Below, one piece after another: positions 7,892-47,263 of a DNA stretch of 64,000 nt. The notes below the pieces were generated by a model. The model saw nothing but the letters and a program-made list of their open reading frames with translations, made no database searches and was not told the origin of the DNA. Origin of the DNA: Thermodesulfobacteriota bacterium (GTDB lineage: Bacteria; Desulfobacterota_D; UBA1144; Nemesobacterales; UBA2774); contig DAOKYU010000009.1 in NCBI GenBank assembly GCA_035325995.1, positions 21,286-85,285 of the forward strand, written 5' to 3'. Each line of letters starts with the position of its first letter. Position 1 is the stretch's first letter. Position numbers and translations under genes: made by a program.

Positions 7892-8166
7892 AAGAGATCC
7901 TTCAGGAAAACAGCGATGCCGTCCGCCAGGCCGGTGAGGCCCTGGTCGAAATCGGCACCGAGCTGGCGGCGGGACGGATCGAGAACGCCCTCGGCCGTCT
8001 GGAAGCGGCCCAGCAGCAGTACCTGGCCTGGGCGGAGTTGGACCAGGCCATCATCGACATTCAGGAAGCTGTCCACGACCGGAAGAACACCCTGGCCGTG
8101 CAGCAGATCCTGACGGAACTGGTGGGCACCATCCTCGGAAACGCCTTGAGGACAGGAATGCATTGA
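7888..8166 (+). CDS. small hypothetical phage protein
   Basis: GGAGG RBS. ATGA-coupled to lipoprotein gene and stop overlaps TerL start. Confidence 0.4.
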   Translation: MKEILQENSDAVRQAGEALVEIGTELAAGRIENALGRLEAAQQQYLAWAELDQAIIDIQEAVHDRKNTLAVQQILTELVGTILGNALRTGMH

Positions 8167-9689
8167 TGGCGGTAACCGACAAGGAGCGCAAACTCGCGGC
8201 GACCCTGAGCGATCCCGTGTTGTGGGGGCAAGCCTACCTCTACAACCGGGATGGCTCAGGCCGCGACTACTGGCCGCACCAGGTGGAGGACCTGCGCTGC
8301 CCTGCCAAGAACATCATCCACCTCGACGGCCGGGACGTGGGCAAGTCCATCGTGCTCTCGACCGACGCGCTCCATTACGCCTTCACCACCCGAGGCGGCC
8401 AGGGCCTCATCGCGGCTCCGCACCAGGGGCACCTTGATACCATCATCGAGGAGATCGAGTTCCAGCTCGACACCAACCCGGATCTGATGAACAGCATCGC
8501 CCTGACCAAGTACGGCAAGCCCAAGATCCACCGCAAACCCTACTTCCGGCTGGAGTTCACCAACGGTTCGGTGCTCTATTTCCGCCCGGCCGGGGCTTAT
8601 GGCGACGCCTTCCGGTCCCTGCACGTGAGCCGCGTCTGGGTCGATGAAGGAGCCTGGCTGACCGAGCGTGCCTGGAAGGCGCTGCGCCAGTGCCTCAAGG
8701 CCGGGGGGACGCTACGCATCTACTCCACGCCCAACGGCCTGCGCGACACCACCTATTACCGGCTCACCTCGTCGGATCAGTTCCATGTGTTCCGCTGGCC
8801 GTCCTGGCTCAATCCCCTGTGGACCGAGGAGCGCGAGGCCGAACTGCTGGAGTTCTACGGCGGCCGCGACAGCTCCGGCTGGCAACACGAGGTGGCCGGT
8901 GAACACGGCAAGCCCTCCTATGGGGCCTTCAATGTCGAGCAGTTCAACCTCTGTCGGCAGGATCTGCTGGAGTATCAGAAGATCGTCATCACCGATTCCG
9001 AGCTGCGCGACTGCGACACCGAGGAAGCGGCCCACGACCGGCTGGAGATGCTGCTCAACCTCACGCCCCGCAGCGGGCAGTTCTGGATCGGTGGCGACCT
9101 GGGCTACACCAACGACCCCACCGAGATCGTCGTATTCCAGGAGACGGAGATCGGCGAGCGGACGCTGCTGAAGATGATCCTGCGCGTGCATCTTGAACAC
9201 GTTTCCTATCCGCACATCGCCCAGATCATCGCGCTGCTGGAGCGTTACTACACCCCGGCGGGCATCGGCGTGGACAATGGCGGCAACGGTCTGGCCGTGG
9301 TTCAGGAGCTGCTCACCCTGGACAAGTACAAGGGGCTTGAGTTGGAAGGCAGGCTCAAAGGATACGATTTCGGCGGCATGACCCGGCTGGCGGTCCGCGA
9401 CGGCAAGGAAGTCAAGAAGCGCACCAAGGAGCTGATGACCAGCCTCATCAACGGAGCCCTGCAGCGCAAGCAGGTCATTTTCCCCTCGGACGACCTGGAA
9501 GTGGAAGACCAGTTCACCACCCACACCTACACCCTGCGGGACGGCAAGATCATCTATTCCAAGGGCAACGACCACATCATCGACGCGGTCCGCTGTGCCA
9601 TGCTGATCCGGGAAGAAGGCAACCTCGACCCGGTCGGCGAAGAGGTGGTTTCGCTCAAGCCCGTGCTCACCAATCCGGTCTTCATCTGA
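8166..9689 (+). CDS. terminase large subunit
   Basis: N-terminal ATPase (HLDGRDVGKS Walker-A-like). C-terminal RNaseH-like nuclease with GGDLGYTNDPTEIVVF ... DHIIDAVRCA. Position before portal. Confidence 0.75.
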   Translation: MAVTDKERKLAATLSDPVLWGQAYLYNRDGSGRDYWPHQVEDLRCPAKNIIHLDGRDVGKSIVLSTDALHYAFTTRGGQGLIAAPHQGHLDTIIEEIEFQLDTNPDLMNSIALTKYGKPKIHRKPYFRLEFTNGSVLYFRPAGAYGDAFRSLHVSRVWVDEGAWLTERAWKALRQCLKAGGTLRIYSTPNGLRDTTYYRLTSSDQFHVFRWPSWLNPLWTEEREAELLEFYGGRDSSGWQHEVAGEHGKPSYGAFNVEQFNLCRQDLLEYQKIVITDSELRDCDTEEAAHDRLEMLLNLTPRSGQFWIGGDLGYTNDPTEIVVFQETEIGERTLLKMILRVHLEHVSYPHIAQIIALLERYYTPAGIGVDNGGNGLAVVQELLTLDKYKGLELEGRLKGYDFGGMTRLAVRDGKEVKKRTKELMTSLINGALQRKQVIFPSDDLEVEDQFTTHTYTLRDGKIIYSKGNDHIIDAVRCAMLIREEGNLDPVGEEVVSLKPVLTNPVFI

Positions 9690-9764: not shown

Positions 9765-11312
9765 ATGTGCGGCTGTCATGGCCGAAACTACCGAGAGGAT
9801 CACGTGGAAAGCACTGCCCATCAGGACGACCAACCCGAAAGCCTGGACACCACCGGCTTTGTCATCGCGCCGCTGGCCGCAGCGGCCGCGCTCGACTCGG
9901 CCGCCTTCAGCAAGGTCAACGCCACCGAAGCGATTCCGGCCACCTGGGAAGAACGCGCCCGCAAGGCCTGGGAATACTACGTCGAGGAGCCGTTGGTGAA
10001 GAACTGCGTCAACTCCTGGCGCACCTTCGCCGTGGGCGACGAGATCAAGATCACCAGCGATGACGAGACCCTTAAGGAGCAGGCCCTGGAGGCCGCCTGG
10101 CGGTTGAACATCACGCAGTTCATCAAGGACATGGTTCTTCAACTCCTGGTGAAAGGCGACGCCATCGGCTTCAAGCGCTTTACCAAGTCCGGCCAGGACA
10201 TCGAGGAACTGGTCTGCGTCAACCCGGTTTCGGTCAAGGTTAAATACGCCCAGGGCGAACTGATCGAGGCCCGGCAATTTCCCGAGGACACCCCCGGCGG
10301 CGGGGAATCCATCCCGCTGCCCGTCGAGCAGGTGGTCCACCTCAAATGGGACGCACCGGCCTTCTCGCCCCGGGGTAACTCCCTCGTGCTTCCCGCTTTT
10401 CAAGCCATCGAACTGCTGCGCGACTACCGCCGGGCCGAACAGGCCATCGCCAAACGCTGGGCCACGCCGTTTCGCCTGCTCAAGGTGGGCGGCGCGTTCG
10501 GCCAGAAGATGGTGATGCCGGACCAGCGGATGCTCGAACAGGTTCGCGACATGGTCAACAAGATGGACATGAAAAGCGGCCTGGTGGTCCCGTTCTACGT
10601 CAATGTCGAAACCCACGGCACCGACGGCCAGGTCCTCAACGTCGAGGACAAGGTCAAGGAGGTGAAGGAAGACATCGTGGTGGCCCTGGGTCTGTCACGC
10701 TCGCTGGTGACCGGCGATGGCCCTAATTTCGCCACCGCCTCGGTGAGCATGCAGAAGATGATGGTCATGATCCGCGAGATCAAACAGGCCGCACGCAAGC
10801 TCCTCGACTGGGTGTTCGATGACTGGATGGAGCTGAACGGCCACGGCGACAAAAGCATCCAGTTCATCTTCAACGACCTCGACCCCAGCGACGCGGTCGA
10901 TTTCAAGAAGCTCCTCATCGAACTCTACGACCGCAAACTCATCAGCCGCTCCAGCCTTCAGCTCAAGATGGACCTGGACCCGGACATCGAGGCTGCCAAC
11001 CGCGAGACAGAACGTAAGCAGATCGACCTGATGGACGAGAAACAGGTGAAGCCGGTGGTGGATATGGTCGTCTCCGGCATCCTGAGCGTGCCTCGCGCCC
11101 GGAAGATGCTCGGGATTCCGGCCGAGGACAATGAACCCACGGCGGAGGCTGCATTGGTCTGGTCGGGCGACCTGGAGTCCACCGGCGATGCGGCCGTGTG
11201 CGACGAGTGCAGCCACTTCATCGCTGACACCAACCACTGCCGGGTCCACAACAGCGAGCGCACTTTCGACGCCCCGGCCTGTCGTTTCATCGACCGTCGG
11301 GAGCCCCGCTGA
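9765..11312 (+). CDS. portal protein
   Basis: 515-aa ORF immediately after TerL and before MuF-like head protein. Start uncertain, with alternative GTG at 9804 after a GAGAGG RBS-like hexamer (9794-9799). Confidence 0.65.
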   Translation: MCGCHGRNYREDHVESTAHQDDQPESLDTTGFVIAPLAAAAALDSAAFSKVNATEAIPATWEERARKAWEYYVEEPLVKNCVNSWRTFAVGDEIKITSDDETLKEQALEAAWRLNITQFIKDMVLQLLVKGDAIGFKRFTKSGQDIEELVCVNPVSVKVKYAQGELIEARQFPEDTPGGGESIPLPVEQVVHLKWDAPAFSPRGNSLVLPAFQAIELLRDYRRAEQAIAKRWATPFRLLKVGGAFGQKMVMPDQRMLEQVRDMVNKMDMKSGLVVPFYVNVETHGTDGQVLNVEDKVKEVKEDIVVALGLSRSLVTGDGPNFATASVSMQKMMVMIREIKQAARKLLDWVFDDWMELNGHGDKSIQFIFNDLDPSDAVDFKKLLIELYDRKLISRSSLQLKMDLDPDIEAANRETERKQIDLMDEKQVKPVVDMVVSGILSVPRARKMLGIPAEDNEPTAEAALVWSGDLESTGDAAVCDECSHFIADTNHCRVHNSERTFDAPACRFIDRREPR

Positions 11313-14300
11313 TGCCGTCGGACCTCAAGCAGCGCATCCATGCTGCCACCCTAAAGAGCCTTACGGCCCGCAACCGCTACAACGACCAGGTCACGGCCCA
11401 GCTTACCCAGGCGCTGAAACAGGCCGAAGACGAGGTCGCCCGCGCCATCCTCCAGTACCGCTCCCTCGGCTCCCTGCCGGACAACAAGCTCGCCGCCCTC
11501 AAGGGGCTGGAAAAGCTCCAGCTCGAACTCGACGACACCATGAAGCGGCTCAAACGGGAGCAGACCCTGCTCTTTCGCAAGACGACCAAGGACTCCTTCA
11601 AGCTCGGCATCCAGCAGGGAATCGGAGAGCTCGCCGACTCAGCGCTGCCGTTCTACGCCGACCTGAAGCCCGAGGGCATCGACAAGCTGGCCACCAAGGT
11701 GTTCACCATCGTCGACACCAATGCCCTCGACTTCATGGCGCAGTACAACCTCACACTCGCCGGTGACGTCCACCGCGAACTCGCAGACGGCATCAAGCGC
11801 ACCATCCTGAACGGCGTCGCCACGGGCAAGGGAGCCGACGACATCGTCCGGGATATGGGCAAGGTGATCGTCGACAAGGACTCCTTTCGCCAGGCCGGAA
11901 GCCGGGTGTTCAGCAAGGCGCAGTACCGCATGGAGATGATCGCCCGCACCGAGGTTCTCCGCGCCCACAACATGGGCAGGCTCAAGTTCCACGAGCGGGT
12001 CGGCATCCAGAAGCTGGAATGGCTGGCTATGGAGGACGAGCGCATGTGCCCGGTCTGCGGCGGCCTGGACGGCAAGACCTTTCCCATCGACAAGTTCCCC
12101 CAGCAACCCGCGCATCCGCACTGCCGCTGCACCAACATCGTGGCCTGGCCGATGACCGTCTGCGGTAGCGAGATGGCCGCCAAGGCAGCCGCCCAGGCAT
12201 CGCAGGGGGACGCATGCATTCTCCCGCCCCATGTGCTGGAAGGCATGGCCGACGCCCAGGCCAAGGAGAACGCCAAGCTCAAGAGCGCCTTTGAAAACGG
12301 CGACATCGCCGACCTCGGTTCGCTGACGGTCAAACAGCTCCAGACCCTGGCGAAACAGAACGGCGTGGCCATTGCCCGGACCAAGGCCGATTTCATCAAG
12401 ATGCTCGATCTGGCCGAACCGGGGATCGATCACGGCGACCTGGCCGGAGCGGCACTCAGCGCCAAGCTCAAGGAACACAAGATCGGCCTGCTGCGGACCA
12501 AGGAAGAACTGGTCGAGCTGCTCGGACTGAAGCAGGCGGAACTCAAACAGGCCAAGCTGCTCGCCGCCCAGTTGGCGAAGATCCCTCCCGCCGAGGGGCT
12601 GGAGGGCATGACCGCTCAGCAGCTCAAGGAGATGGCGAAGGAGAACGGTATCTCCCTCAACATGACCAAGCAGGAGACCATCGAGCTGCTGGATAAGCTG
12701 GAACCCGGCGTGGATCACAGCGGCCTGATGGGCAAGGAACTCGCGGCGGCCAAACAGAAGCACGGCATCGGCATCCTCAAGAACAAGCAGCAGCTCGTTG
12801 AGGCGCTGCAGAAGAAGGCCGGTGCCGACATGGCCGAGTCGGTCAAGAAAAAGGCAGTCGACGAGGCCAAACAAAAGCTGCTCCTGAAACAGAAAACGGC
12901 ACTCGAAGACGCCGCCAAGGCCGTGGTCGTTCCCGACACGCCGACCGGCTACAAGGATTTCCTCGACGCGATTGCCAAGGTGGAACAGGCGGTTTCCGGC
13001 GGCACAGATCTACCCCAGGATCTGCTGGCGGCCCACAGCAAGGAAATCGCCCTCAAGAAACAGCTCTTTCAGGATCAGATCGGCAAGCTGAAATCGACGG
13101 AGCTCAAGACGCTCGCCAAGGAGACCAAGGTCCAGTATTGGCAGTGGGCCAACAAAGACGAGCTGGCCACGCTCTTCACCGAGACCGATCCCGCGAAAAT
13201 CAAAGCGGTTCAGGCCAGCATCGACACCAAGCACGCAGCCTGGGCCGAAAAACATGGCGGCAAGAAGAAAACCGCACCGGCCAAGCCCGCCACGCCGAAG
13301 AAAGAGCCACCGAAACCGGCTCCGCAGCCGATCCCGGTCAAGCCGCCCGAGCCCAAGATCGGCAAGAAAGGCGCGGAGTTCGCCACCGTCGATACCGCGT
13401 GGCAGCAGAAGGGCCTGTCTTCGAAATTCAAGAAATCCGGCAAGGCCGCTGTCGGCGGCGCACACGAAAAGGAGTTCTGGACCGACGAAAACGGCGACAA
13501 ATGGCTGTTCAAGCCCATTGGCCGCAAGGATGACGAGTTCATCGCTTTCGGAGAGGAAGCCGCGTACAAGATCGGTCGCCTGATCGACCCTCATTCCATC
13601 GAGGTGCGCACCATCCAGTTGAACGGCCGCACCGGCTCCATCCAGAAATGGCGCACCGATCTGCGGGACGACTTCGATTTTCGCAACATCCTGCCCCAGG
13701 ATCTGACCACCATCGAACTGGAGCAGATCCAGCGCGAGCATGTGGTCGACTGGCTGATCGCCAACCACGACGGACACTCCAAGCAATTCATCCGCGCCCG
13801 GGACGGTCGCGTCTACGGCATCGACAAAGGCCAGGCCTTCAAGTTTCTGGGTCAGGACAAGCTCTCGCTCGACTATCACCCCAACGGCGTCTGCGGCGAG
13901 GAAGAGCCGTTTTACAACAAGGTCTTCCGGGCGGCCAAGGAAGGGAAGGTACGGGTCGATCCGAACGCGACCCTGCGCTACATCCAGGAAGTCGAAAAGA
14001 TCGCCGACGAGGATTACCTCGATCTGCTGCGGCCTTACGCCGAGGGACGGTTCGCCAAGGACCCGGCCGGGCTGCGGCATTTCTACGATCTGGCCTTGGA
14101 GCGGAAACACAATCTCCGGCGGGACTTCGAGGGTTATTACGCCGATGTGCTGGGGGATCGGGGCTTCCGTTTCGACAAGCTGAGCGCCGCCACCGGCAAG
14201 AAAAAGCTGCTCTCCTCCGCCGAAGAGACCCTGGTCGAGGAGGCCCGCAAACTCGGCTGGCAAGGCAAGACGTTGCCCTTCGACAGCGGCGACGTGGAGG

Positions 14301-15901
14301 ACCAGAACGCGCTGATCTTCACTGAGAGCTTCAAGGGGAAGAAGCGCACCGTGGTGAAGATGAAGATCCGGCCGGACACCGACCGCCGCATCGACGAGGT
14401 GCTGCGCAGGTATGTGCAGACGGCTGCCGGGGAAAAGGGACAACCGCTGGTCGAAGACAGCTTCTTTCCGACGATTCTGGACGCCGTCAAAAACGTCAAT
14501 TTCCACGTGGGCGACGGCAAGTACAACCGGACCAAGATCGACAAGGCCCTGCGCCTGCGCAAGAAACTGGAGACCCTACAAAAGAGCGCCGACCCCAAGG
14601 TCAAGGAGATGGCGGACCATTATCTGAAATGGGTCAAGGAGATCGAAGAATCCGTCGACTGGGACCGGGCCACCAACGGCGTTTTTGAGCAGTATCTGCC
14701 CAAGCTCGACGCGCAGAAACCCAAGGAGAAACCGCCGTTCAAGGTGGAACGCGGCAAGGTGACCCACACCAAGCGCAGGATCAGTTCCGGCACCATCACC
14801 GTCGAGGCCGACGACATCGACAACCGGACGCTGTTCAATCACAACTCCCGCATGCAGGACGGGCACCAGTACACCGTCACCTTCGAGGACGGCACCCGGG
14901 TCCGCTATCGCCCCTGGTCGGACACCAACCTTTATGCCCAGCGCGGAGAGCTGGAAATGATCCTGGATGGCGATGCCACCCCCGGACGGGTCGAAGCGAT
15001 GCTGGAAAAGCTCGAACAGCTCGGCATCGACACCCGGGTGGCCACGGCGGAAAACGCGGAGCAGATGTATCTCGAAAAGCTCGCCTACATCCGCAAGACC
15101 GACAAGAGCGCCGACTACAAACGACTGCAGAAATCCCTCGACGACCGCAACGCCACCACCACCGAGCGGGTCCAGGCTCTGCGCGGCTATTGGCAAAAGG
15201 AACTTGGCGTCCAGGACATCACCCAGCTTTCCGGATACAACCCGCTGGGCGAATATCAGGCGGGCTTTCTGGACCGCGACGCCAAGGGCGGATACCGGCA
15301 CCAGCTCCGGTTCGACATCACTGAGGAGGACCTGGAAAAACAGATGAAGGGCTATTCGCTGGTCCACGATCTGACCAACGGCGAGAGTATGTCCGGCTTC
15401 ATCGACTTGATCATGGAGAACAACGGAGCCATGGTCAGCACGGTCGAGAAGATGCGCATGGGCGTGGCTCCGGGCGGAATGTCCCCGGTGGCTGACATGC
15501 AGACCGGCGGCGCGAGCTATTTCTTCACCCGGATCAAGAAGCAACCGGCCAGCGACGCCTCACCGGCCCTCTATTTCAAGAAACAGATGCTGCGGCGCAT
15601 GGACGCCATCAGCTACGACCATGACGCCTACGGCAAGGTGATTGATGACTACGTGCAGCGCAACCGGGGGGCCAGCATCGACGACTGGAAGCGGTTCTCG
15701 CAGCGCCATGGCAACGAGACCATCTTCAAATACTCGGTGACGCTGCTGGACAACATCGAATTCATCGTCGCCAGAAGCGACAACGAACGCCGGGAGATCA
15801 TCCAGAGTTTCACCCGGCGCGGCATCAAGAAACTGCCCGACGGGCGCAAGGTGGAGGACATCGTCCATACCCCGCAAAGCTGGAGCAAACGCAAACAATG
15901 A
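11312..15901 (+). CDS. MuF/SPP1-gp7-family minor head protein with a ~1,100-aa C-terminal extension (HeH/Rho-N-like repeats, P/K-rich linker, atypical-kinase-like core)
   Basis: MuF motif region MCPVCGGLDG...HPHCRC. Three to four ~45-aa HeH-like repeats (LTVKQLQTLAKQNGVAIARTKADFIKML...). Linker KKKTAPAKPATPKKEPPKPAPQPIPVKPPEPK. Then WLFKPIGRK / LIANHDGHSKQF / GIDKGQAF resembling the HipA/PI3-4K catalytic core. Confidence 0.7.
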   Translation: MPSDLKQRIHAATLKSLTARNRYNDQVTAQLTQALKQAEDEVARAILQYRSLGSLPDNKLAALKGLEKLQLELDDTMKRLKREQTLLFRKTTKDSFKLGIQQGIGELADSALPFYADLKPEGIDKLATKVFTIVDTNALDFMAQYNLTLAGDVHRELADGIKRTILNGVATGKGADDIVRDMGKVIVDKDSFRQAGSRVFSKAQYRMEMIARTEVLRAHNMGRLKFHERVGIQKLEWLAMEDERMCPVCGGLDGKTFPIDKFPQQPAHPHCRCTNIVAWPMTVCGSEMAAKAAAQASQGDACILPPHVLEGMADAQAKENAKLKSAFENGDIADLGSLTVKQLQTLAKQNGVAIARTKADFIKMLDLAEPGIDHGDLAGAALSAKLKEHKIGLLRTKEELVELLGLKQAELKQAKLLAAQLAKIPPAEGLEGMTAQQLKEMAKENGISLNMTKQETIELLDKLEPGVDHSGLMGKELAAAKQKHGIGILKNKQQLVEALQKKAGADMAESVKKKAVDEAKQKLLLKQKTALEDAAKAVVVPDTPTGYKDFLDAIAKVEQAVSGGTDLPQDLLAAHSKEIALKKQLFQDQIGKLKSTELKTLAKETKVQYWQWANKDELATLFTETDPAKIKAVQASIDTKHAAWAEKHGGKKKTAPAKPATPKKEPPKPAPQPIPVKPPEPKIGKKGAEFATVDTAWQQKGLSSKFKKSGKAAVGGAHEKEFWTDENGDKWLFKPIGRKDDEFIAFGEEAAYKIGRLIDPHSIEVRTIQLNGRTGSIQKWRTDLRDDFDFRNILPQDLTTIELEQIQREHVVDWLIANHDGHSKQFIRARDGRVYGIDKGQAFKFLGQDKLSLDYHPNGVCGEEEPFYNKVFRAAKEGKVRVDPNATLRYIQEVEKIADEDYLDLLRPYAEGRFAKDPAGLRHFYDLALERKHNLRRDFEGYYADVLGDRGFRFDKLSAATGKKKLLSSAEETLVEEARKLGWQGKTLPFDSGDVEDQNALIFTESFKGKKRTVVKMKIRPDTDRRIDEVLRRYVQTAAGEKGQPLVEDSFFPTILDAVKNVNFHVGDGKYNRTKIDKALRLRKKLETLQKSADPKVKEMADHYLKWVKEIEESVDWDRATNGVFEQYLPKLDAQKPKEKPPFKVERGKVTHTKRRISSGTITVEADDIDNRTLFNHNSRMQDGHQYTVTFEDGTRVRYRPWSDTNLYAQRGELEMILDGDATPGRVEAMLEKLEQLGIDTRVATAENAEQMYLEKLAYIRKTDKSADYKRLQKSLDDRNATTTERVQALRGYWQKELGVQDITQLSGYNPLGEYQAGFLDRDAKGGYRHQLRFDITEEDLEKQMKGYSLVHDLTNGESMSGFIDLIMENNGAMVSTVEKMRMGVAPGGMSPVADMQTGGASYFFTRIKKQPASDASPALYFKKQMLRRMDAISYDHDAYGKVIDDYVQRNRGASIDDWKRFSQRHGNETIFKYSVTLLDNIEFIVARSDNERREIIQSFTRRGIKKLPDGRKVEDIVHTPQSWSKRKQ

Positions 15902-16410
15902 CCATGAAGGACTTTATCGAGCAGGAGAAACGAAGGCTGCAGGAAGCGCTGCACTGGTTCAACAACCGGGGCAGCCGCATGACCCTAAGGGAATCCGGGG
16001 ATCTCTTTCTGGATACCCTGGTGGACAGCTTCACCGTCACCCGGATCGCACCCCATTTCGACGCCGTAGGCAACCATCTGCGCACCGATTTCTGGCTGTT
16101 GTGGAAGGCGCTTGGCTACGACGAAGGCTTTCAGCACGCCCACACCGTCAAGGTCGTCGATGTCCGGGTCGAAGATACCCTGACGGCCGAACATGACGGC
16201 AAGGAGGCCGAAGGCTGGCTGATTGTCGAGCTGACCGACGATCTGGGCCGGATTCACCATGTCGAAATGATGGAGCCGGTCTCGGAGCCCGAGCTCGCGG
16301 CGGACTGGCAACGCTGGATCGCCTACCGCCAGAAAAACGCCGAAAGATTCCGCCGGATCGACGCCCAGCTTCTGGCCGAGCATCTCCGGATCGCGGAGGA
16401 CTGGTCATGA
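15898..16410 (+). CDS. hypothetical phage protein
   Basis: ATGA-coupled ORF, no recognisable domain. Confidence 0.4.
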   Translation: MTMKDFIEQEKRRLQEALHWFNNRGSRMTLRESGDLFLDTLVDSFTVTRIAPHFDAVGNHLRTDFWLLWKALGYDEGFQHAHTVKVVDVRVEDTLTAEHDGKEAEGWLIVELTDDLGRIHHVEMMEPVSEPELAADWQRWIAYRQKNAERFRRIDAQLLAEHLRIAEDWS

Positions 16411-16760
16411 AACTGCGCTATATGCTCGACTCGATAATCGCAGACCGGCAAGCCACCGCCCCGGAATACGTGCCCGTGGGCGTCTGGGTTCAGGGGCCGG
16501 GTCCCGGTCTGGATGTGGAGATGTACTATCTCGACCGTGGGCCGAACGGGCTTGCCGACCGCAGGGACGAGGCCGCCTGGGTGGTCAACCGTCTGGTCGA
16601 GGCCGGGGCCACCTCGCTTCCGGCGGATTTTCTCGAATACCACCGGCTGTCCCGCTCCCCCTATGACGGGTTCTTTTCCGAGATCACCGAGAGCGACGAA
16701 TACCCCTCCCTCGACGCCTGCGGCAAGGCCGTTCTGACCCGTCTGAACCCCGCCCGCTGA
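16407..16760 (+). CDS. hypothetical phage protein
   Basis: ATGA-coupled ORF. Confidence 0.4.
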   Translation: MKLRYMLDSIIADRQATAPEYVPVGVWVQGPGPGLDVEMYYLDRGPNGLADRRDEAAWVVNRLVEAGATSLPADFLEYHRLSRSPYDGFFSEITESDEYPSLDACGKAVLTRLNPAR

Positions 16761-16772
16761 AATTCGCCGTCA

Positions 16773-16810
16773 CCCTCCGACACATCGCCGACGCTTCCGG
16801 TAAGTAACCG
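16773..16810 (+). promoter_or_regulatory. copy 3 of conserved late-module motif (CCTCCGACACATCGCCGACGCTTCCGGTAAGTAACC)
   Basis: Intergenic, 54 bp upstream of the MTase-protease-scaffold gene. Confidence 0.5.
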
Positions 16811-16863
16811 CTGAACGCTCCCCGCAGGTCGCGGAGAGCACAGCAAACTGACCGGAGACGTTG

Positions 16864-19260
16864 ATGGAACTGTTCGCCACAGACCTGGAAAGGCTGGCGT
16901 TTCTACTGGAGGCCGATGCGGCGCTGACTCTCGATCCCGACACGCTCGGGACCGAGGCCGCCGAACAGTCCGCTCCTGAAGAGCTCCCTCCCGAGAAACG
17001 CCCCAAGTACATCACCAACTACATCGGCAGTAAGCAGAAGCTCGTCGACTGGATCTGGAAGCATACCCCGGAAGGCACTGGCACGGTGCTGGACGCCTTT
17101 TCGGGGTCTGCGGTCGTGGCCTACATGTACAAGACCAAAGGCCTCCAGGTCATCGCCAACGACCGGCTCCGCTACTGCCATCACGCCGCCAAGGCGATCA
17201 TCGAGAACAACTCGGTTCGCCTGAGCGAGGACGAGATCGAGGCGCTCCTGGCCGACAACGCCAAGGCGGGCAGCTTCGTTCAGGACAACTTCAAGGGCAT
17301 CTTCTTCGCCAAGGGCGTCCATGCGCTGATCGACACCATCCGCGCCAACTGCGACAAGCTCTCCGGCTTCAAGAAAGATATCGCCCTGTTCGGCCTCGGC
17401 AAAACCTGCATGAGCGGCAAGGGTGGCTTCGGCCACTTCTCGTCGTCCACCGATTATGGCCGCCGCCAGGACACTCCCGACGAGTTCAAGGATCGCCTGC
17501 GCAAGAACCTGCAGCGCATCAACGCCCTGGTCTTCGACAACGACAAGGAGAACAAGGCATACCGGCAGGACATCAACGATCTGCTGCCGAAAGCCAAGGC
17601 GGATCTGGCCTACTTCGATCCGCCTTACGCCACCGAGTTTTCGACCACCAACTACGAGCGGGCCTACCACTTCGTGGAGGGGCTCATGACCTATTGGGAA
17701 GGGCTCGAAATCAAAGCCGACACCAAGGTCAAGTATTACGAGACCGACCACAAGACCGTCACCAAGGCCAACGCCAGCGAGTTCTTCCAGACCTTTCTCG
17801 GCAACGCCAAGCACATCCCGCACTGGCTGATCTCCTATCGCGATCACGCCTATCCCAACGAGCAGGAGATGAAGCGGATCATCGGCTCCTTTGGCAAGCA
17901 GAGCCGGATGAAGTCCAAGGATCACCACTACGCCATCACTTCCAAGCACGGCGAGGCTTCCAACGCCAAGGAGCGTCTGTTCGTCTGCGCTCCCGGGGCC
18001 AAGGCCAGCGCCGAGCGGGAGGAGAAACCCGTTCCGATGGCTGCCGCCGCGAACTTCCACACCAGCATCCCCGTGGACATCCGGCTGGGCGAAGGCGAAC
18101 GCCTCACGACCGAGGCCATGGATGTCGGCTCGGCGGGCGACCCCCAGTTCAGCTTCGTGCTCTGCCGCACCGGCACCAACAAGAACGGCGACCACTTCAC
18201 CGCCGAGGAGTTGTCCGGTCGGCACATGACGGCCGTGAACAAGAAGGTCGATCTGCAGCATTCGCAGGAGTTCAACGACATCGTTGGTGGCATCGTCGCC
18301 GCCGACTACCTGGAGGACGACAACGGGGGCCGCGTGGAATGCGTCGGCGAGCTGTACGTCCACGACACCCCGGCCGCCCGGCTGGCCTACAAGCTGATGA
18401 AGCGCGGGATCATCTCCCAGGTCTCCATGGAGTGCGACTACCAGGAAGGCGAATGCTCGGTCTGCCACAAGCGCTTCCAGAACAAGGCCGACTACTGCAC
18501 CCACCTGCGCAAATTCAAGGGCCGTGATTTCAACGGCCAACCCGTTTTCGAGATTCTGCACGGCGTCACTTTCACCGGACTGGGACTGCTCGACCGCAAA
18601 GGCGCGGACGAGAACGCCAGGATTCTGCAGGTGGCGTCCCTTCAGAGCCAGCCCGACCAATCCCAACCCGAAGGAGATTCCACGATGGAAGACAAAACCA
18701 AACCCACCGATGACCAGGCCGTCGAAGCGGCCAAGAAGAAACCGGCCCAGCAGGAAGGCGATCCTGCCCGCGTTACCGACCTGGAAAAGGAAAACCGGCA
18801 GCTCAAGGCCCAGGTCGCCGAGCTGCAGAAACGCGTCCAGGAACTGGAAGCCGAACAAAAGGCGGCCGCCTGCCGCTCCCGGGCCAAGAAGCTGCTCACC
18901 CGTCTGGAGAAGCAGGGACTCTCCTTCGCTTCCGAGGAGGACCGGGAAGCCGAACTGAAACGCCTGGCCGAACTGTCCGACGAAGCCTTCGCCGCCACCG
19001 AGGCTGCTTACGAACGCCTGCCCAAGTCGGCCAAAGCGGACAAGGACAAGGAAGAGAAACCCGCCGACAGCGACCAGGGCGGCAAGCCCGCCGCCAAGGC
19101 CTCGACGGAAACCCCGCTGCGCAGCGACGCCGGTGTCCGGCCCCACGATGTGGACGACCGCAAGGTGTCGCTCGAGGACCGCCTGCGCGACGGGTTCATG
19201 GCCGCTTACCGCAACCGTGTCGGCGAGGACTCTCCCGAACACTCGGAAATCAACGCATAA
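16864..19260 (+). CDS. fusion protein: Dam-like N6-adenine DNA methyltransferase + prohead protease + coiled-coil scaffold
   Basis: N-terminal KYITNYIGSKQKL and AYFDPPYATEF (DPPY motif IV). Middle GELYVHDT...IISQVSMEC resembling the HK97-type prohead protease. C-terminal coiled coil DLEKENRQLKAQVAELQKRVQELEAEQ typical of scaffold. Single uninterrupted ORF. Confidence 0.65.
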   Translation: MELFATDLERLAFLLEADAALTLDPDTLGTEAAEQSAPEELPPEKRPKYITNYIGSKQKLVDWIWKHTPEGTGTVLDAFSGSAVVAYMYKTKGLQVIANDRLRYCHHAAKAIIENNSVRLSEDEIEALLADNAKAGSFVQDNFKGIFFAKGVHALIDTIRANCDKLSGFKKDIALFGLGKTCMSGKGGFGHFSSSTDYGRRQDTPDEFKDRLRKNLQRINALVFDNDKENKAYRQDINDLLPKAKADLAYFDPPYATEFSTTNYERAYHFVEGLMTYWEGLEIKADTKVKYYETDHKTVTKANASEFFQTFLGNAKHIPHWLISYRDHAYPNEQEMKRIIGSFGKQSRMKSKDHHYAITSKHGEASNAKERLFVCAPGAKASAEREEKPVPMAAAANFHTSIPVDIRLGEGERLTTEAMDVGSAGDPQFSFVLCRTGTNKNGDHFTAEELSGRHMTAVNKKVDLQHSQEFNDIVGGIVAADYLEDDNGGRVECVGELYVHDTPAARLAYKLMKRGIISQVSMECDYQEGECSVCHKRFQNKADYCTHLRKFKGRDFNGQPVFEILHGVTFTGLGLLDRKGADENARILQVASLQSQPDQSQPEGDSTMEDKTKPTDDQAVEAAKKKPAQQEGDPARVTDLEKENRQLKAQVAELQKRVQELEAEQKAAACRSRAKKLLTRLEKQGLSFASEEDREAELKRLAELSDEAFAATEAAYERLPKSAKADKDKEEKPADSDQGGKPAAKASTETPLRSDAGVRPHDVDDRKVSLEDRLRDGFMAAYRNRVGEDSPEHSEINA

Positions 19261-19272
19261 GGAGGAAACACC

Positions 19273-19635
19273 ATGTCATTCATCAATCCGTGTCACCGCA
19301 GCCTCGCCTATGGCGACGGCCACATCCAGGGCGACGGCCAGCTTGGCCAGGTGGTCCGCGTGGTCGGCGACGACCTGTTCGCCGTCAACACCGATCCCAC
19401 CAAGCGTTCCTTCGGCATCCTGATCAAGGACTACGCCGGTGGCGAAATGCCCGGTATCTACTGCGATGGCGGCGTCTACGAGACCGACGCCTTCGAAGGG
19501 ACCGTCGTCGCCGGAGACGACCTGAAAGTTTCGGCGGGCGGTCGCCTGACCAACGGTGTCGCGGCCGGAGAGCACGTGGTCGCCCACGCCATTTCCGTAC
19601 AGAGCGGCGTCCTCAAATTTCGACTGCTCGTCTAA
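19273..19635 (+). CDS. small beta-rich head-associated protein (DUF2190-like) adjacent to capsid gene
   Basis: 120 aa, Gly/Val-rich, position immediately before major capsid gene. Confidence 0.45.
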   Translation: MSFINPCHRSLAYGDGHIQGDGQLGQVVRVVGDDLFAVNTDPTKRSFGILIKDYAGGEMPGIYCDGGVYETDAFEGTVVAGDDLKVSAGGRLTNGVAAGEHVVAHAISVQSGVLKFRLLV

Positions 19636-19653: not shown

Positions 19654-20517
19654 ATGAAAACCAATCAGTTGAAGATCCACTCCCAGGAGTACATGGAAAC
19701 CATGGCGCGGCTCATGAGCGAGGCTCTCGAGTCGCCCGAAGGCATGCGGGCGCTTGCCGCCGCCATTGCCGCGCCCATCGAACAGGAGATCAAGCGCAAG
19801 GAGATCTCCTCGCTGCTGCTCACCAAGCACACGCTGCCCAAGGGCGAACGTCCGGTTTACCAGAAGAAACCGACCGTCAAGGCCCACTGGATCAGCAAGG
19901 ACGGCGACGCCCAGGAGCAGGAGGTGGGCAAGGACGAAGTCGAGTTCCCCACCAATCGCATCCACTCCAATCCGATGGTGGACGTGTCCGTCCTCAAGAA
20001 CGGCAACATCGGCACGCTGATGGACATCCAGACCAGCGCAGCCGACGCCATCCGCAAGGAGATGGACCGCCGCACCATCTCGGTGCTCTCCTCGGCCATC
20101 CCGGCGACCAACACCATCGAGGTCACCGGCGACCTGCTCACCGAAGAGGCGCTGAACGAAGCCATCTCGATCATCGAGGACCTGGAGCTGTCGGTGAAGT
20201 ACATCGTCATGCGCGGCCGCCGGTTCAACGACATGCGCGGCTGGAACCTCGATCCCCAGACCAAGCTCGAGCTGCGCCAGAAGGGTGTCATCAAGAACTA
20301 CGGCACCGGCGGCATTCTGCTGACCGCCTCCATGCCGCTGGACGAGATCATCATCGTCCCGGATGAAGAGGTCGGAAAGATGCCGGTGCGCGAAAACCTG
20401 AAGACGGAGTCCATCGATCAGAAGACCCGCTTCAAGACCGGCTGGCTGGTGTGGTCCGAGATCGGTCAGGGCATTACCCGCCCTGACATCATGGCCAAGG
20501 TCAAACTGGTTCCGTAA
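19654..20517 (+). CDS. major capsid protein
   Basis: 287 aa following protease/scaffold and decoration-like gene. Strong RBS. Confidence 0.65.
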   Translation: MKTNQLKIHSQEYMETMARLMSEALESPEGMRALAAAIAAPIEQEIKRKEISSLLLTKHTLPKGERPVYQKKPTVKAHWISKDGDAQEQEVGKDEVEFPTNRIHSNPMVDVSVLKNGNIGTLMDIQTSAADAIRKEMDRRTISVLSSAIPATNTIEVTGDLLTEEALNEAISIIEDLELSVKYIVMRGRRFNDMRGWNLDPQTKLELRQKGVIKNYGTGGILLTASMPLDEIIIVPDEEVGKMPVRENLKTESIDQKTRFKTGWLVWSEIGQGITRPDIMAKVKLVP

Positions 20518-21347: not shown

Positions 21348-21693
21348 CCGGGAACGCGCCGAAGCCGTGGCCGACGTCGCCCGGCTGATCCTCTCCTCGG
21401 GCCAGACAGCACGCGTCCTGCGCGTGGTTCCCGGCGAGCGGCTCTACGGCACCGACGATGCCGAATACACGGAAATCTCCGTCATCCCCCTCGAACTGAA
21501 CGAAACCCCGCCGGAGGAGCTGAGCGGCAAGATCGACGCGCTTGCCTGTGTCCTTCCGGATGCCGATGTCCGGGGTGAAGACCGCCTGGCCTCAGACAGG
21601 GAAACCTATCGCATACAGAGTGTGGAAGAAGAACACTTCTTCGGCACCGTCACTCATAAGAACCTGCAACTGGTGAAGCTCAATGGGCGTTAG
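21334..21693 (+). CDS. head-tail joining/closure protein (putative)
   Basis: Small overlapping ORF in connector module. Confidence 0.35.
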   Translation: MLLNDRERAEAVADVARLILSSGQTARVLRVVPGERLYGTDDAEYTEISVIPLELNETPPEELSGKIDALACVLPDADVRGEDRLASDRETYRIQSVEEEHFFGTVTHKNLQLVKLNGR

Positions 21694-22168
21694 GCGGACC
21701 GGTGACTGGGACAAGGCCCGCGCCAAGCTGACCACCGGCATGGGGCCACGTCTGGCCACGGCCCTGCGACAGGCCACGATCCGCAACGCCCTTTTTCTGG
21801 TGCGCGAGATCCAGCGGGGGATTCGCTCCCAGGCCCCGGGCGGACAGGCCTTCGTGAAACTCGCCGCAAGCACCATCGAGCGCAAAGGTTCCAGCAAGGC
21901 GCTCATCGACACCGGCTTTCTCGTCAACGCCATCACCCAGAAGATCATGGCCGACAAGGCGTTCGTCGGCCTGCTGCGCGGCACCGTCAACAAGGACGGG
22001 GAAGACATGGTGAACATCGGTGCCGTCATGGAGTACGGGGCCACCATCAAACATCCGAACGGCGCGACCATCATCATACCCGCCAGACCATTTCTGCATC
22101 CGGTGATGGAGAAGTACCGCGAACAGATCCTCCAGAACTATCGCGAGGCGATCCGCTCCGCGCTTTGA
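21683..22168 (+). CDS. HK97 gp10-like tail-completion/virion morphogenesis protein
   Basis: 161 aa, position and size. Weak motif similarity. Confidence 0.45.
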   Translation: MGVRRTGDWDKARAKLTTGMGPRLATALRQATIRNALFLVREIQRGIRSQAPGGQAFVKLAASTIERKGSSKALIDTGFLVNAITQKIMADKAFVGLLRGTVNKDGEDMVNIGAVMEYGATIKHPNGATIIIPARPFLHPVMEKYREQILQNYREAIRSAL

Positions 22169-23048: not shown

Positions 23049-24578
23049 ATGCCGACCTATCTATCGCCCGGGATTTACACCCGGGAAACGGACTTCAGTT
23101 TTTATGTGAAGCAGATCTCGACCTCGTCGGCCGCCATGGTCGGGGTGGCCGAGAAAGGTCCGATCAACAAGCCGGTGCTGGTGACGAGCTGGGAACAGTT
23201 CATCAACCGTTTCGGCTCCTACATCAACGAGAGCTATCTGGCCTACGCCGCCCGGGCGTTTTTCGACAACGGCGGCTCGGTCCTTTACGTCACCCGCATC
23301 GCCCATCTCACCGATCCCACCGACCGTGACACCCTGACGGCGCTCAAGGCATCCGTCGTCCTGCAGAACCGGGAGGCGACCCCCGCCGACGCCCTGCGGA
23401 TCGAGGCCGTGAACGAAGGCGTCTGGGGCGACCGACTCTCCGTCTCCATCGAGGACGGCTCCCTTGACCCGGCCAACCATTTCAACCTGGTGGTCCGGCA
23501 TAAAGGCGATGTGGTCGAGGTGTTCAAGGATCTGAGCATGGACGAGACGCTGCCCAACCATGTGGAGCTGGCGATCAACGACCGTTCGGATTTCATCCTG
23601 GTCCAGGATCTGGCAGCCGTGTCGGGAACGCCCGGCGACCGTCCGGCATTGGGCGTGTTCACACTCACCGGCGGTGACAACGGGCTGGCCGATCTGGCCG
23701 ATGCCGATTTCATCGGCGATCCCTCGCAGCATACCGGCCTCTATGGCTTTGACGAGATCGACGCCCTGAACCTGCTGATGGTTCCCGGCGTCACGACGGT
23801 GCCGGTGATCAACGCCGGAATCGCCTATGCCGAAGGGCGCAAGGATCTGCTGTTCATCGCCGACATGCCCATGCACCTGGAGCCGCTCGAAGCGGTCGAC
23901 TTCCGCAAGGGACAAGGGATGTACAGCCACGCGGCCTTCAACTCCTCCTACGCGGCGCTCTACTACCCCTGGCTGGAGATCAGCGATCCGGTCAACTCGC
24001 GCAAGAAGCTGGTGCCGCCCTGCGGCGCGGTGGCGGGCTGCATCGCCCGCAGCGACCAGAAGACCAACGTCTGGAACGCGCCCGCCGGTATCGACCGGGG
24101 CCGCATCTTCAACACGCTCTCCCTGGCCTACAAGACCAGCCGTGGCGAGCGCGATGTGCTCTATCCGGAAGGGATCAACGTCATCGCCGTGTTCCCCGAC
24201 ACCGGCATCAACATCTGGGGGCAGAAGACACTGCAGAGCCAGCCCTCGGCCGTGGACCGCATCAACGTCCGCCGCCTGATGATGTACATGGAGGAAGCCA
24301 TCTCGGAATCCTCCCGCTTCGTGGTGTTCGAACCGAACCATCCCCAGACCTGGCGTGCCCTCGGCCGCCTGATCAATCCCTTCCTTCAGGACATCAAGGA
24401 CAAGGGCGGCCTCTACGACTTCGCATTCCAGTGCGACGAGGAGACCAATACCCCGGCGGTCATCGACCGCAACGAAATGGTGGCCCGCGTGTTCGTCAAG
24501 CCGACCAAGACGGCGGAGTTCATCGAGCTGAACTTCATCCTGACCAGCACCGGCGCGGACTTCAAAGAAATCATCTAA
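23049..24578 (+). CDS. contractile tail sheath protein
   Basis: N-terminus MPTYLSPGIYTRETDFS, classic sheath start. 509 aa. Confidence 0.85.
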   Translation: MPTYLSPGIYTRETDFSFYVKQISTSSAAMVGVAEKGPINKPVLVTSWEQFINRFGSYINESYLAYAARAFFDNGGSVLYVTRIAHLTDPTDRDTLTALKASVVLQNREATPADALRIEAVNEGVWGDRLSVSIEDGSLDPANHFNLVVRHKGDVVEVFKDLSMDETLPNHVELAINDRSDFILVQDLAAVSGTPGDRPALGVFTLTGGDNGLADLADADFIGDPSQHTGLYGFDEIDALNLLMVPGVTTVPVINAGIAYAEGRKDLLFIADMPMHLEPLEAVDFRKGQGMYSHAAFNSSYAALYYPWLEISDPVNSRKKLVPPCGAVAGCIARSDQKTNVWNAPAGIDRGRIFNTLSLAYKTSRGERDVLYPEGINVIAVFPDTGINIWGQKTLQSQPSAVDRINVRRLMMYMEEAISESSRFVVFEPNHPQTWRALGRLINPFLQDIKDKGGLYDFAFQCDEETNTPAVIDRNEMVARVFVKPTKTAEFIELNFILTSTGADFKEII

Positions 24579-25891: not shown

Positions 25892-28800
25892 ATGAACGGC
25901 GATCTCGGACTGGGCATAGTGGTATCGATGAAGGATGCGTTCTCGCAGAACGCGCAGCGCATCCGTGGTTCCATGATGGACCTCGATTCCACCGTGGCGG
26001 ATGCCAGCGAGCGGATGACCCGCAACCTGGACCGCATCCAGCAAGGGACCATGATGCTGGGGGCGGGACTGGCCCTGATGGCAGTACCCGCCGCCCTGGT
26101 CGCCTCCACCGCCGCGACCCAGAAAGCCCTGGGCGAGCTGGCGTCCCTCGGCGTGCAGGACCTCCGGGCCATCGAGGACGCCGCCGAATCCTTCACCAAC
26201 CAATGGTCCGGTGCCGACAAGGCCGCCTTCATCACCGCCACCTACGACGTGAAATCGGCCCTGTCCAACCTCAGCGACGAGGCGGTGGGCGTATTCACCT
26301 CCATGGCCGCCATGACCGCCAAGGCGACCAAGGCCACCACCCAGGAGATGGTCGGCACCTTCACCACGGCCTACGGGATCTTCAAGCCCATCATGGCCGA
26401 CATGAACGACATGGAATGGGCGACCGCCTTTTCCGGAGCCATGGCGCAAACCGTGGCCTCGTTCAAGACCAACGGCACCCAGATGGCCGACGCCATCAAG
26501 AACATCGGCGCGGTGGCGGCGGCGAGCAACATTCCCCTGAACGAGCAGCTCGCCGTGCTTGGCCAGCTTCAGACCACCATGCCCGGCTCCGAGGCGGGCA
26601 CGCTGTACAAGGCGTTCATCATGAAGGCGGCCGAGGCCGGGGACGAGCTTGGCCTGTCGTTCACCGACACCAGCGGCCGCCTCAAGGGCGTGGTTCCCAT
26701 CCTGCAGGAGATCAAACGCCAGTTCCCCGACCTCTCCAACGCCGCCGCCCAGGTGAAACTGAAGAAGGCCTTCGGTTCCGACGAGGCGGTCAAGTTCCTG
26801 CTGCAGATGTCGGCGGGCATGGAGAGCCTCGAAGGCAATATCCAGTCGGTGGGCCGGGCCATGAAGACCGGCACGGCAGTCACCGAGCAGATGGCCGACG
26901 CCATGAACCAGGACATCGGAGCCCGGTTCCTGCTTCTGCGCCAGCAGATGGCCAACCTCAGCGAAATCCTGGGCCGCACTCTGCTGCCGGTGGTCACGCC
27001 GATGATCAACGGGGTCTCCCGCTTCATTCTGTTCCTGCAGCGCATGGCCAAATCAATGCCGGGCGTGACCCGGGTGGTCCTGGGACTGTCCATGGCCCTC
27101 GGCACCATTCTGGTCGTGGCCGGAGCCGTCACCGCCGCCGTGGGCATGGTGGGACTCATGCTTCCCGCCATCAAGGCCGGGTTCGTGGCCATCAGCGCCG
27201 CGTTGGCCGGGGTGGGTTCGGCGGTCGCGACCTATTTTCTGCCCGTCACCGCGATCATCGCGGGCGTGATCCTCTCGGTGTATCTGCTCAAACGCGCCTG
27301 GGAAACCAACTTCGGCGGCATCCAGGACGTCATAACCGGGGCCTGGAACAAGGTCTCGCTGGTGTTCCGGGGGGTCAGAGAGCTGGTGGGTTCGCTCAGC
27401 GGCGGCGTCGGGCAGATGTCGGCCGAACTGGCCCAGAAGCTCGAATCCGCCGGACTGATGGGCTTCGTGGTCACCGTCTTCAAAGCCTATTACCGCGTTC
27501 GTGAGGCCCTGGCCGGATTGTGGGCCGCGTTCTCCCATGCCTTTGGCCGCATCCGCGCCATCCTCGAACCCACCGTCCGCACCCTGATGAGTGCCTATGC
27601 GGCGCTGGCCAGCGCGGTCTTTTCAGTGGTGGAGATCTTCGGCGTTGCCGCCAGCGCCACCGACGGGTCGTCCTGGCGCACCTTCGGCACGGTTATCGGC
27701 ACCGTCGCCGGTGTGCTTCTGCAGGGGCTGGCATTCGCGCTGAAGATCGTGGCCTGGAACCTGTCGCTCATCGTCCGAGCCCTGGCGGTGGTGGTGCGCA
27801 GCGTGGTCTGGGTCGGCAAGGTCATCGTCGGGTCCCTGGTCGGAGCAACCAAGTTCATCTACAAGTTCCTGCTGCCCGTGCGCATGATCGGCGAGGCCTT
27901 CGTGGCCGCCGGGAAGATCGTCTATGCGGTCTGGCAAGTGCTGACCGGCGACATTTCCCTGCTGGACGGTCTCAAGGCCATCGGCGGCGCGGTCTACGAT
28001 TTACTCGCCACCCCGTTCCGCTGGGCGCGGGATGTGGTGGTCGGTGTCTGGAATTTCATTTCCGGGATCTTCACCTCCATCGGACGCCTGGTGGCTGACG
28101 CCGCCGGACAGATCGGCCAGGCGATTCTGAATCTGCCGATCATCAGCACCCTGCGAGATCTGTTTGCCACCGTGCGCTCCTTCTTCGCCGGGGATACCAC
28201 CTTCTTCGAGGCGGGCAAGAAGCTACTGATCACCCTGGGAGAAGGGATCTGGTCGGCGGTGACCTATCCATTCACCATGCTTAAGAACGCCCTCGGCAAG
28301 TTGCGCAATCTGCTGCCGTTCTCCGATGCCCGCGAGGGACCACTCGCCAGCCTGACCGCCTCCGGTTCCGCGCTGCTCAAGACCCTCGCCGACGGCATGA
28401 GCCTTACCCAGTCGCTGCCCGCGAAAGTGTTCGGCTTCGCCGCTCGCGGGATTCTCTCGGCCGCTGCGGGAACCTGGCAGCAGATCAAAACGGCAGGCGG
28501 CAACCTCATGGATGCCGCCTCGGCTCCCTTCCGGATGGCCGGAAAACTCTGGGATGGGTTGACCTCCGGCGCTCAAACCGTCGCGGCCAAGGCCGGTGCC
28601 ATCTTCGGCGGTCTCAAACAATCCCTGTTTGGCAACACGCCCGAACTGGCGCTCACGCCGCCCCAGGTCAATGCCTGGGACGCGCTGGCCACAGGAGCCG
28701 TCAATCTCCGCGACCGGATCGTTGCCACGCTGTCTGCCGTCCCCGGGGCTGTCGGTCGAATCTTTGCCAGTGCCGGTACCGAGGGGCAATCCCTCTGGCA

Positions 28801-46969: not shown

Positions 46970-46981
46970 GGAGGCACGGCC

Positions 46982-47239: not shown

Positions 47240-47263
47240 CCGGCTCACTGCCACCGCCACCCC

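Follow-up and report, generated by a model that had tools for sequence, protein, structure and literature searches.

In a few well-described viruses the capsid maturation protease is encoded in frame with the scaffold, and the scaffold is also made from an internal start; lambda C/Nu3, Mu I/Z and herpesvirus UL26/UL26.5 are established cases. In such nested genes the shared scaffold part is the protease's route into the procapsid. Delivery of counter-defence proteins from the capsid has likewise been described in few model phages (P1 Dar, T4 IPI and Alt, N4 RNA polymerase), and the loading device differs from one to the next. Here we examine a gene in a stretch of 64,000 nucleotides (nt) from a Thermodesulfobacteriota bacterium (contig DAOKYU010000009.1, positions 21,286 to 85,285), called the window below. 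The gene encodes three parts in the order D12-class N6-adenine DNA methyltransferase (methylase), assemblin/HK97-type prohead serine protease and coiled-coil scaffold tail. On balance we think it probable that this is the head-maturation gene of a temperate phage with a methylase added at its N-terminus, and that the methylase would be encapsidated, freed and used to protect the phage genome from restriction.

In phage P1 the Dar proteins, DarB among them, reside inside the head, are ejected along with the DNA and counteract restriction (PMC12810830). According to PMC12810830 and PMC5512222, DarB contains a DNA adenine methylase, is predicted at about 45 copies per head and protects against type I restriction, and incorporation into the P1 head is tied to morphogenesis and the prohead protease. 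In T4, Alt, the internal proteins and foreign enzymes enter heads by way of targeting peptides cleaved by gp21 and reach the host; foreign enzymes fused to the tag were packaged at 20-200 copies (PMC9026906). A single sentence of Iyer et al. (2017) notes an assemblin-like peptidase at the C-terminal end of some phage 'polyvalent proteins'. In the available parts of that paper (PMC5512222), polyvalent proteins are predicted to be packaged, the peptidase probably processes the effector domains during assembly, and the methylases are of the gamma class, EcoKI/TaqI-like with NPPY, and paired with SNF2 helicases. Hia5, Hin1523 and Nma1821 are non-specific adenine methylases of Mu-like prophages giving broad anti-restriction (Drozdz et al. 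2012, PMC3299994). Beyond the one sentence in the accessible text of PMC5512222, no description of a methylase-protease-scaffold fusion was found in the literature.

The features of the gene are given below in window coordinates and in residues (amino acids, aa) of the product; pLDDT is the predicted local distance difference test score of the structural model.

16864..19260, + strand: methylase-protease-scaffold polyprotein gene, 798 aa, 89 kDa; ATG start, GGAGA Shine-Dalgarno sequence at 16854-16858
17011..17991, + strand: D12-class N6-adenine DNA methyltransferase domain, residues ~50-376 (PF02086)
17092-17109, + strand: methylase motif I, DAFSGS, with invariant residues D77-F79-G81
17617-17628, + strand: methylase motif IV, DPPY, residues 252-255
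17992..18144, + strand: linker 1, residues 377-427; low model confidence, pLDDT <50 at residues 408-423
17998-18009, + strand: candidate cleavage motif AKAS in linker 1
18037-18039, + strand: internal ATG M392 in linker 1; GGAGGAG 12 nt upstream; non-conserved
18145..18633, + strand: assemblin/HK97-type prohead serine protease domain, residues 428-590
18259-18261, + strand: predicted protease catalytic His466
18424-18426, + strand: predicted protease catalytic Ser521
18454..18504, + strand: zinc-ribbon-like insert in the protease (C531, C534, C545, H547)
18671..18687, + strand: internal ribosome-binding site (RBS) AAGGAG, 18671-18676, and in-frame ATG of Met608, 18685-18687; predicted start of the nested scaffold gene
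18685..19260, + strand: scaffold region or predicted nested scaffold protein, residues 608-798, 21 kDa
~18766-18993, + strand: coiled coil of the scaffold; weak Pfam coiled-coil matches, residues ~635-710
19030-19041, + strand: candidate cleavage motif AKAD in the scaffold region
19093-19104, + strand: candidate cleavage motif AKAS in the scaffold region
19132-19257, + strand: conserved C-terminal tail, RPxDxDD...LxDGxMAAY

The frame is open without stops over 16861..19260 (+), which amounts to 799 aa if counted from a TTG; the likely start, an ATG at 16864 that GGAGA precedes by 6 nt, would give the 798-aa product. The first-pass annotation of this DNA had described a single open reading frame (ORF) joining methylase, protease and scaffold, and all three do lie in one uninterrupted frame, 16864-19260. 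In PHROGs, phrog_27806 ('DNA methyltransferase') covers the fusion protein end to end at 1739 bits, so a near-identical prophage protein is already present in that collection. The identical sequence is HML96131.1 from a Thermodesulfobacteriota metagenome-assembled genome (MAG), recorded as 'DNA adenine methylase', and every named homologue encountered is labelled either 'DNA adenine methylase' or 'site-specific DNA-methyltransferase'.

The N-terminal part matches PF02086 at residues 53-293 (E 9e-26, 91.5 bits against a Pfam cutoff of 22), a threshold that the diverged fusions P0126, P0158 and P0138 also pass. The motif I (FxGxG) that binds S-adenosylmethionine (SAM) precedes the catalytic motif IV (DPPY), the order expected of the D12 class, and neither D77-F79-G81 nor residues 252-255 vary in three alignments of 12, 18 and 24 diverged homologues. 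An AlphaFold2 (AF2) model of the methylase (pLDDT 83, predicted template modelling score, pTM, 0.82) has the Rossmann fold of SAM-dependent methyltransferases, and DpnM could be aligned to it over 226 residues. The domain had been called Dam-like. Its assignment as a D12-class N6-adenine methylase holds; a Dam orthologue is ruled out by a score far under the cutoff of TIGR00571 (Dam, GATC methylases; 24.8 bits vs 114.85, the matched stretch being residues 52-100 only). A sequence search of the PDB gave no relative for either the methylase half or the protease half. The ratio of nonsynonymous to synonymous substitution (dN/dS, Nei-Gojobori) was determined between the window and loci 75-98% nucleotide-identical over the aligned head-tail module, and was 0.01-0.13 for the methylase, 0.0-0.18 for the protease, 0.03-0.26 for the scaffold and 0.14-0.67 for the linkers. 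Purifying selection on the methylase is as strong as on the protease. The methylase domain is thus intact, under selection and active-looking.

The protease domain has the assemblin fold. H466 and S521 do not vary among 38 diverse sequences, and both fall inside the stretch matched by the prohead protease models S78 and TIGR01543, with scores below threshold for Pfam S78 (Caudovirus prohead protease; residues 461-528, 17.4 bits vs 21) and for TIGR01543 (18.9 bits vs 59). A search with residues 385-640 against 1.84 billion cluster representatives gave 902 matches at E<=1e-3, 45 of them at E<=1e-30. Foldseek against predicted viral structures found Bacillus phage G gp19 at 4e-17 and many proteins labelled prohead/HK97-family protease, COG3740 or XkdF. 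These structural and sequence matches argue that the domain is an assemblin/HK97-type serine protease; judged by sequence and model, it is a divergent subfamily missed by S78 and TIGR01543. A zinc ribbon, CxxC...CxH, sits directly after the catalytic serine. Its four ligand residues are invariant in 38 diverse homologues, the ribbon is kept down to 24% identity, and weak zinc-finger Pfam matches are seen at 530-550. To our knowledge, no role has been described for a zinc-ribbon insert in a prohead protease. In a separate observation, the viral proteins A0A6J5N5R9 (679 aa) and A0A6J5RFH1 (622 aa) of BFVD, labelled as ferritin/Dps-domain proteins, contain the same prohead-protease fold, which suggests that other cargo-protease fusions exist, reminiscent of the ferritin cargo of encapsulins.

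The Met608 ATG, at the end of the protease domain, has AAGGAG 8 nt upstream. An ATG with AGGAG(G) 7-8 nt upstream is found ~20 codons past the protease domain in 57 of 61 distinct family genes; L049 has its nested start at the same site and was missed by the domain-end pattern used in the count. As a background, such an RBS precedes 29 of 918 other in-frame ATGs (3%), mostly at two positions in the near-identical group. The residues encoded at the nested RBS vary (EGD/KGD/EGG/QGG/KGE) and the nucleotides are constant, which points to selection on the mRNA rather than on the protein. Met608 is thus predicted to be translated as the start of a nested scaffold gene, and the 21-kDa product would be the scaffold made alone, by analogy with lambda C/Nu3, Mu I/Z and UL26/UL26.5. 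The assignment as scaffold follows from the weak coiled coil at residues 635-710, the place after the protease, the conserved nested start, the lack of another candidate between MuF and the capsid gene, and the short capsid protein, which at 287 aa is too short to have an N-terminal scaffold domain of its own. The gene order is TerL-portal-MuF-(two small ORFs)-fusion gene-small ORF-major capsid protein; the same order is found in L001, L002 and L161, and the neighbours are kept where the protease is only 40-66% identical. The other ORFs from MuF to the capsid gene had no match to a protease or scaffold family in PHROG or Pfam.

No conserved start before the protease was found across the family genes examined, so that most members of the family have protease only in methylase-fused form. 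No other argument for entry of the methylase into the procapsid is stronger. The idea that the fusion places a methylase there came from the first-pass annotation; it is now better founded, given that this is the only protease and scaffold gene of the head module and that the internal start serves the scaffold alone, though encapsidation itself is something that we infer. The internal ATG M392 was considered as an independent protease start and rejected as a family feature: no genes but those of the near-identical group have it, and it is missing from L005 and L015.

Cleavage motifs between the domains had also been proposed as a check. AKA[SD] occurs at residues 244, 379, 723 and 744, that is, four times where 0.11 were expected (0 of 20,000 shuffles reached four). 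The motifs at 379, 723 and 744 fall in linkers modelled with low confidence: that at 379 closely follows the methylase, and the other two are 50-75 residues short of the C-terminus. In 44 of 75 fusions a relaxed form, [AST][KR]A[SD], follows a methylase domain within 25 residues (background 0.037 per 25 aa), and in 37 of the 75 it is present in the C-terminal tail (background 0.11), these fusions being related to each other and not independent. AKA[SD]-type motifs are thus candidate processing sites, suggestive only.

The same fusion was sought in relatives, as had been advised, and was seen in about 160 loci from genome and viral collections. A genome scan with one genome per species gave 78 loci, and IMG/VR added 79. 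Most of the 78 genome loci have the full fusion and about 30 have a ~1290-aa form with two methylases. The 150 best representatives include at least 17 clusters (50% identity) with methylase, protease and scaffold, the protease being 40-72% identical; tandem methylases are seen in two clusters, an additional stretch of roughly 110-230 aa at the methylase-protease junction in four, and other N-terminal extensions of 117-230 aa in seven, and several representatives are protease-scaffold alone. Pfam gave no match in the non-methylase N-terminal extensions or in the methylase-protease inserts. Megablast of the gene against 50,697 phage records gave no match, and tblastn gave partial matches only: Erysipelothrix phage phi1605 matches just the methylase, and Bacillus phage G gp19 and Vibrio phages match just the protease. 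From these comparisons of sequence, the fusion defines a large, environmental, widespread phage family. The first-pass annotation had regarded the architecture as unusual and could not place it. It is not rare, since the family is large, nor wholly unprecedented, since the peptidase principle appears in the available text of PMC5512222; the methylase class and the nested scaffold are without precedent there.

A recurrent domain of ~85 aa (WEETxNE[IV]RYRVRDPxxF...GRLK...MVLQAYRF...W..EKAKEW), without a Pfam match, was also observed in the family. It separates two methylases in some proteins and a methylase from the protease in others, or stands N-terminally (P0128 ~365-440; P0138 1-90; P0126 ~500-590; L043 ~395-480; L074 ~400-490) and may be an adaptor or a module binding the capsid interior.

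The 22-kb head-tail stretch (window 6850-29260) is 96-98% nucleotide-identical in several genomes (L003-L018, L023, L027, L029). These are from Desulfomicrobium, Desulforhopalus, Desulfobulbus, Desulfofustis, Desulfosarcina alkanivorans (complete genome) and Desulfocarbo, from Geobacteraceae and Desulfuromonadales MAGs, a Verrucomicrobiota MAG and a Rhodospirillaceae MAG, and from Ectothiorhodospira shaposhnikovii (Gammaproteobacteria). The module is 92.5% identical in a Hydrogenedentales MAG, and proteins 98-99% identical are encoded in the chromosomes of Kiritimatiella glycovorans and Mangrovibacter phragmitis and in Marinobacter and Pasteurella multocida. The Kiritimatiella locus (L160, CP010904.1) is truncated: portal, MuF and terminase are missing upstream, the fusion ORF is intact at 98% identity, and LysR, MetE and SHMT host genes and an insertion sequence (IS) transposase abut it. 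The double-methylase lineage (~1291 aa; L043-L048, L050, L060, L069, L080) is 90-97% nucleotide-identical, with the Syntrophus buswellii chromosome (L046) as reference; its hosts are Desulfobacterota together with MAGs assigned to Chloroflexota, Planctomycetota, Nitrospirota and Zixibacteria. MAG binning can mislead on the host, and several copies lie in complete chromosomes. It appears that one phage lineage, seen as integrated copies, has spread across phyla; synonymous divergence of about 0.05-0.16 and dN/dS well below 1 fit a recent spread of a functional element. No description of a cross-phylum element of this kind was found in the literature. One Bryobacterales chromosome, OZ252029.1 (L054, L055, L064, L066 and L002), contains four distinct loci, and one Myxococcota MAG, CAXXHC01 (L034-L037), likewise four. 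Such multiplicity within a genome would be compatible with transposition-like (Mu-type) insertion.

The mechanism that we favour would run as follows. One frame would give two products, the 89-kDa polyprotein and a 21-kDa scaffold from Met608. Because its C-terminal part is common with the scaffold, as in lambda C/Nu3, Mu I/Z and UL26/UL26.5, the long form would join the scaffold in the procapsid core and bring the methylase in with it. Inside the shell, where its high concentration makes it active, the protease would cut the linkers between A and (S/D) in (A/S/T)-(K/R)-A-(S/D), freeing a 43-kDa methylase; the folded domain would stay in the head and the scaffold fragments would exit. The trapped methylase would then protect the phage genome, either by modifying DNA during packaging or by leaving with the DNA and modifying it on entry into the next host. 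The methylase would probably be loaded into every new capsid. The precedents of T4, P1 and lambda make each of these steps plausible. Dam methylation of lambda DNA is only about half complete before packaging (PMC3299994), a problem that a methylase coupled to packaging would solve.

Several points weigh against this mechanism. Published virion or procapsid proteomics for family members were not found. A folded 43-kDa domain would need unfolding to pass the tail, and methylation in the capsid requires SAM to reach its interior. The scaffold region had no match to a Pfam or PHROG scaffold family, and the support for the cleavage motif is purely statistical and comes from related sequences. In L040 an overlapping ORF of its own encodes the first of the two methylases. 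Finally, close protease-scaffold relatives are without the methylase (P0127, P0133, P0147) or have other N-terminal extensions, so that the methylase is accessory to assembly.

The alternatives differ in what they make of the fusion. An assembly frameshift or a lost stop might have merged two separate genes, and broken frames do occur in a few long-read MAG loci (L040, L054, L061, L067). However, one frame is kept in >120 full-length clusters at 98-99% identity and in dozens of diverged homologues, with full-length fusions at 37-72% identity, and it is intact in the complete isolate genomes of Desulfosarcina alkanivorans, Syntrophus buswellii, Kiritimatiella glycovorans and Mangrovibacter phragmitis. 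The comparative data already refute such an artefact, and we regard it as excluded. Alternatively, the methylase domain might no longer be catalytic and might serve the procapsid core only as a structural element, such as a spacer or size determinant. It does belong physically to a polyprotein that would form the core, and its variable number (none, one or two) could tune core volume; yet SAM-binding motif I and DPPY are invariant in every aligned homologue, second copies included, and a dN/dS as low as that of the protease is not what a filler would show. We find this very improbable.

A methylase acting late in the cytoplasm is a more serious contender. It would modify replicating phage DNA while within the unassembled polyprotein, the fusion merely securing strong late expression; capture in the procapsid and degradation would be incidental, or would limit the time over which the enzyme acts. 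Phage orphan methylases normally act in the cytoplasm, an active-looking domain under purifying selection suits any site of action, and relatives of the protease exist without a methylase. However, co-expression does not need a covalent fusion, and this one is kept from 37% to 99% identity, is even tandem-duplicated, and is interrupted, among the loci of this set, in isolated cases only (e.g. L040), some perhaps through assembly errors. Without a separate protease start, moreover, entry of the methylase into the procapsid is hard to avoid. Overall we consider cytoplasmic action unlikely. Encapsidation, the reading preferred above, could also be part of something wider: fusion to the N-terminus of a protease-scaffold may be a general, modular route by which tailed phages load enzymes into the capsid, used for one or two methylases, for domains of no known kind and elsewhere for Dps/ferritin-like proteins. 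In this lineage a capsid-borne methylase would pre-protect or co-protect the genome, and might partly explain the near-identical copies across phyla. This broader proposal is speculative and we hold it with considerable doubt.

The other genes of the phage module in the window are as follows.

8163-9689: large terminase
9765-11312, + strand: portal (PHROG/Pfam)
11312-15901, + strand: MuF/SPP1 gp7-like polyvalent minor head protein, 1529 aa (PHROG/Pfam)
15898-16760: two small ORFs
19273-19635: 120-aa ORF
19654-20517, + strand: major capsid protein, 287 aa (phrog_2522, E 3e-98)
21683-22168: neck/tail-completion protein
23049-24578: sheath
25892-29527: tape measure
to about 43 kb: baseplate genes

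Judged by these genes the prophage is contractile-tailed and myovirus-like with a Mu-like gene order, and the fusion gene occupies what we take to be the place of Mu gene I. The MuF protein extends C-terminally by ~1250 aa (phrog_6577, of unknown function), shows faint endonuclease VII-like matches around residues ~400-464, and is probably a second packaged and injected 'polyvalent' protein of the same phage. The gap just upstream of the fusion gene (window 16760-16864) is an insertion hot spot, with minus-strand cassettes in L161 (7155-9867), L002 (6199-7766) and L001 (2430-3740) that contain a helix-turn-helix (HTH) gene and a 403-aa protein, AAA_14/DUF4143, and DUF4160/DUF7424/zinc-ribbon genes. 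Left of the phage module there are defence-like genes, an AAA_21 ATPase and RloB pair (window 1303-3245). Past the baseplate genes, window 43421-54899 is a run of accessory genes: a 1182-aa protein (phrog_877/5986, of unknown function), an amidoligase-like gene at 47489-48448, an excisionase/HTH-like protein at 49756-50640 and a 1245-aa protein without match. The defence-like genes of the right flank (55318-62063) are in a low-GC island (45-50%) and include a 948-aa N6_N4 methylase and AAA_15/AAA_21 ATPases. No tRNA gene marking an attachment site, and no transposase or integrase, was identified in the window.

The loading signal would here be the assembly machinery itself, written into one gene, which makes the prediction simple to test. 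As the family is annotated everywhere as plain methylase, its protease and scaffold functions are missed by current annotation. If the methylase is encapsidated, it would be a natural answer to the need for guaranteed full methylation of each packaged genome, a possible contributor to the unusually wide host distribution, and a ready-made design for loading enzymes into phage capsids.

The gene compares with known systems in the following way. Lambda C/Nu3, Mu I/Z and UL26/UL26.5 are alike in having the nested scaffold, and the protease of the fusion has the assemblin fold; lambda C and Mu I are members of other protease families. Mu gene I is also located, like the fusion gene, between portal/MuF and the capsid gene. 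However, none of these systems is known to have an unrelated N-terminal enzyme, and the fusion protease adds its invariant zinc ribbon. The candidate cleavage motif resembles the sites of herpesvirus assemblin, cut between A and S, and its positions resemble release and maturation sites. Encapsulins, in which a C-terminal extension binding the shell interior directs enzymes into an HK97-fold shell, differ from the proposal in using a short peptide, in having no protease release step and in having no DNA inside.

T4 capsid targeting is like the proposal in that cargo enters the prohead core, is freed by the prohead protease and stays in the head, but it uses a 10-residue N-terminal tag on separate proteins, whereas the 'tag' in the window gene would be the whole C-terminal protease-scaffold. 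P1 DarB, of about 2,000 aa, has an EcoKI/TaqI-like NPPY methylase and an SNF2 helicase and is a separate gene loaded via DarA/Hdf; the fusion methylase is of the DPPY D12 class and, by Pfam, without a helicase domain, and so is not of the DarB type. The polyvalent proteins of Iyer et al. combine, as far as their published text was available, effector domains with a peptidase; the fusion may be akin to them, having one or two effector domains and a peptidase among virion genes, and a MuF polyvalent protein is next door to the fusion gene; their peptidase is C-terminal, and a D12 methylase, a scaffold tail and a nested scaffold are not in the part of that text available. The Hia5 group is Dam-related (FxGxG...DPPY) with a divergent target-recognition region, and is likened to the fusion methylase by description only; its members, unlike the fusion, are stand-alone genes at the mom position. 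Since the defining features of the DarB and Dam families were looked for and were not seen, we would place the fusion outside both, among the capsid-cargo anti-restriction systems, where delivery of a D12 methylase by protease-scaffold fusion would be a route that we have not found described.

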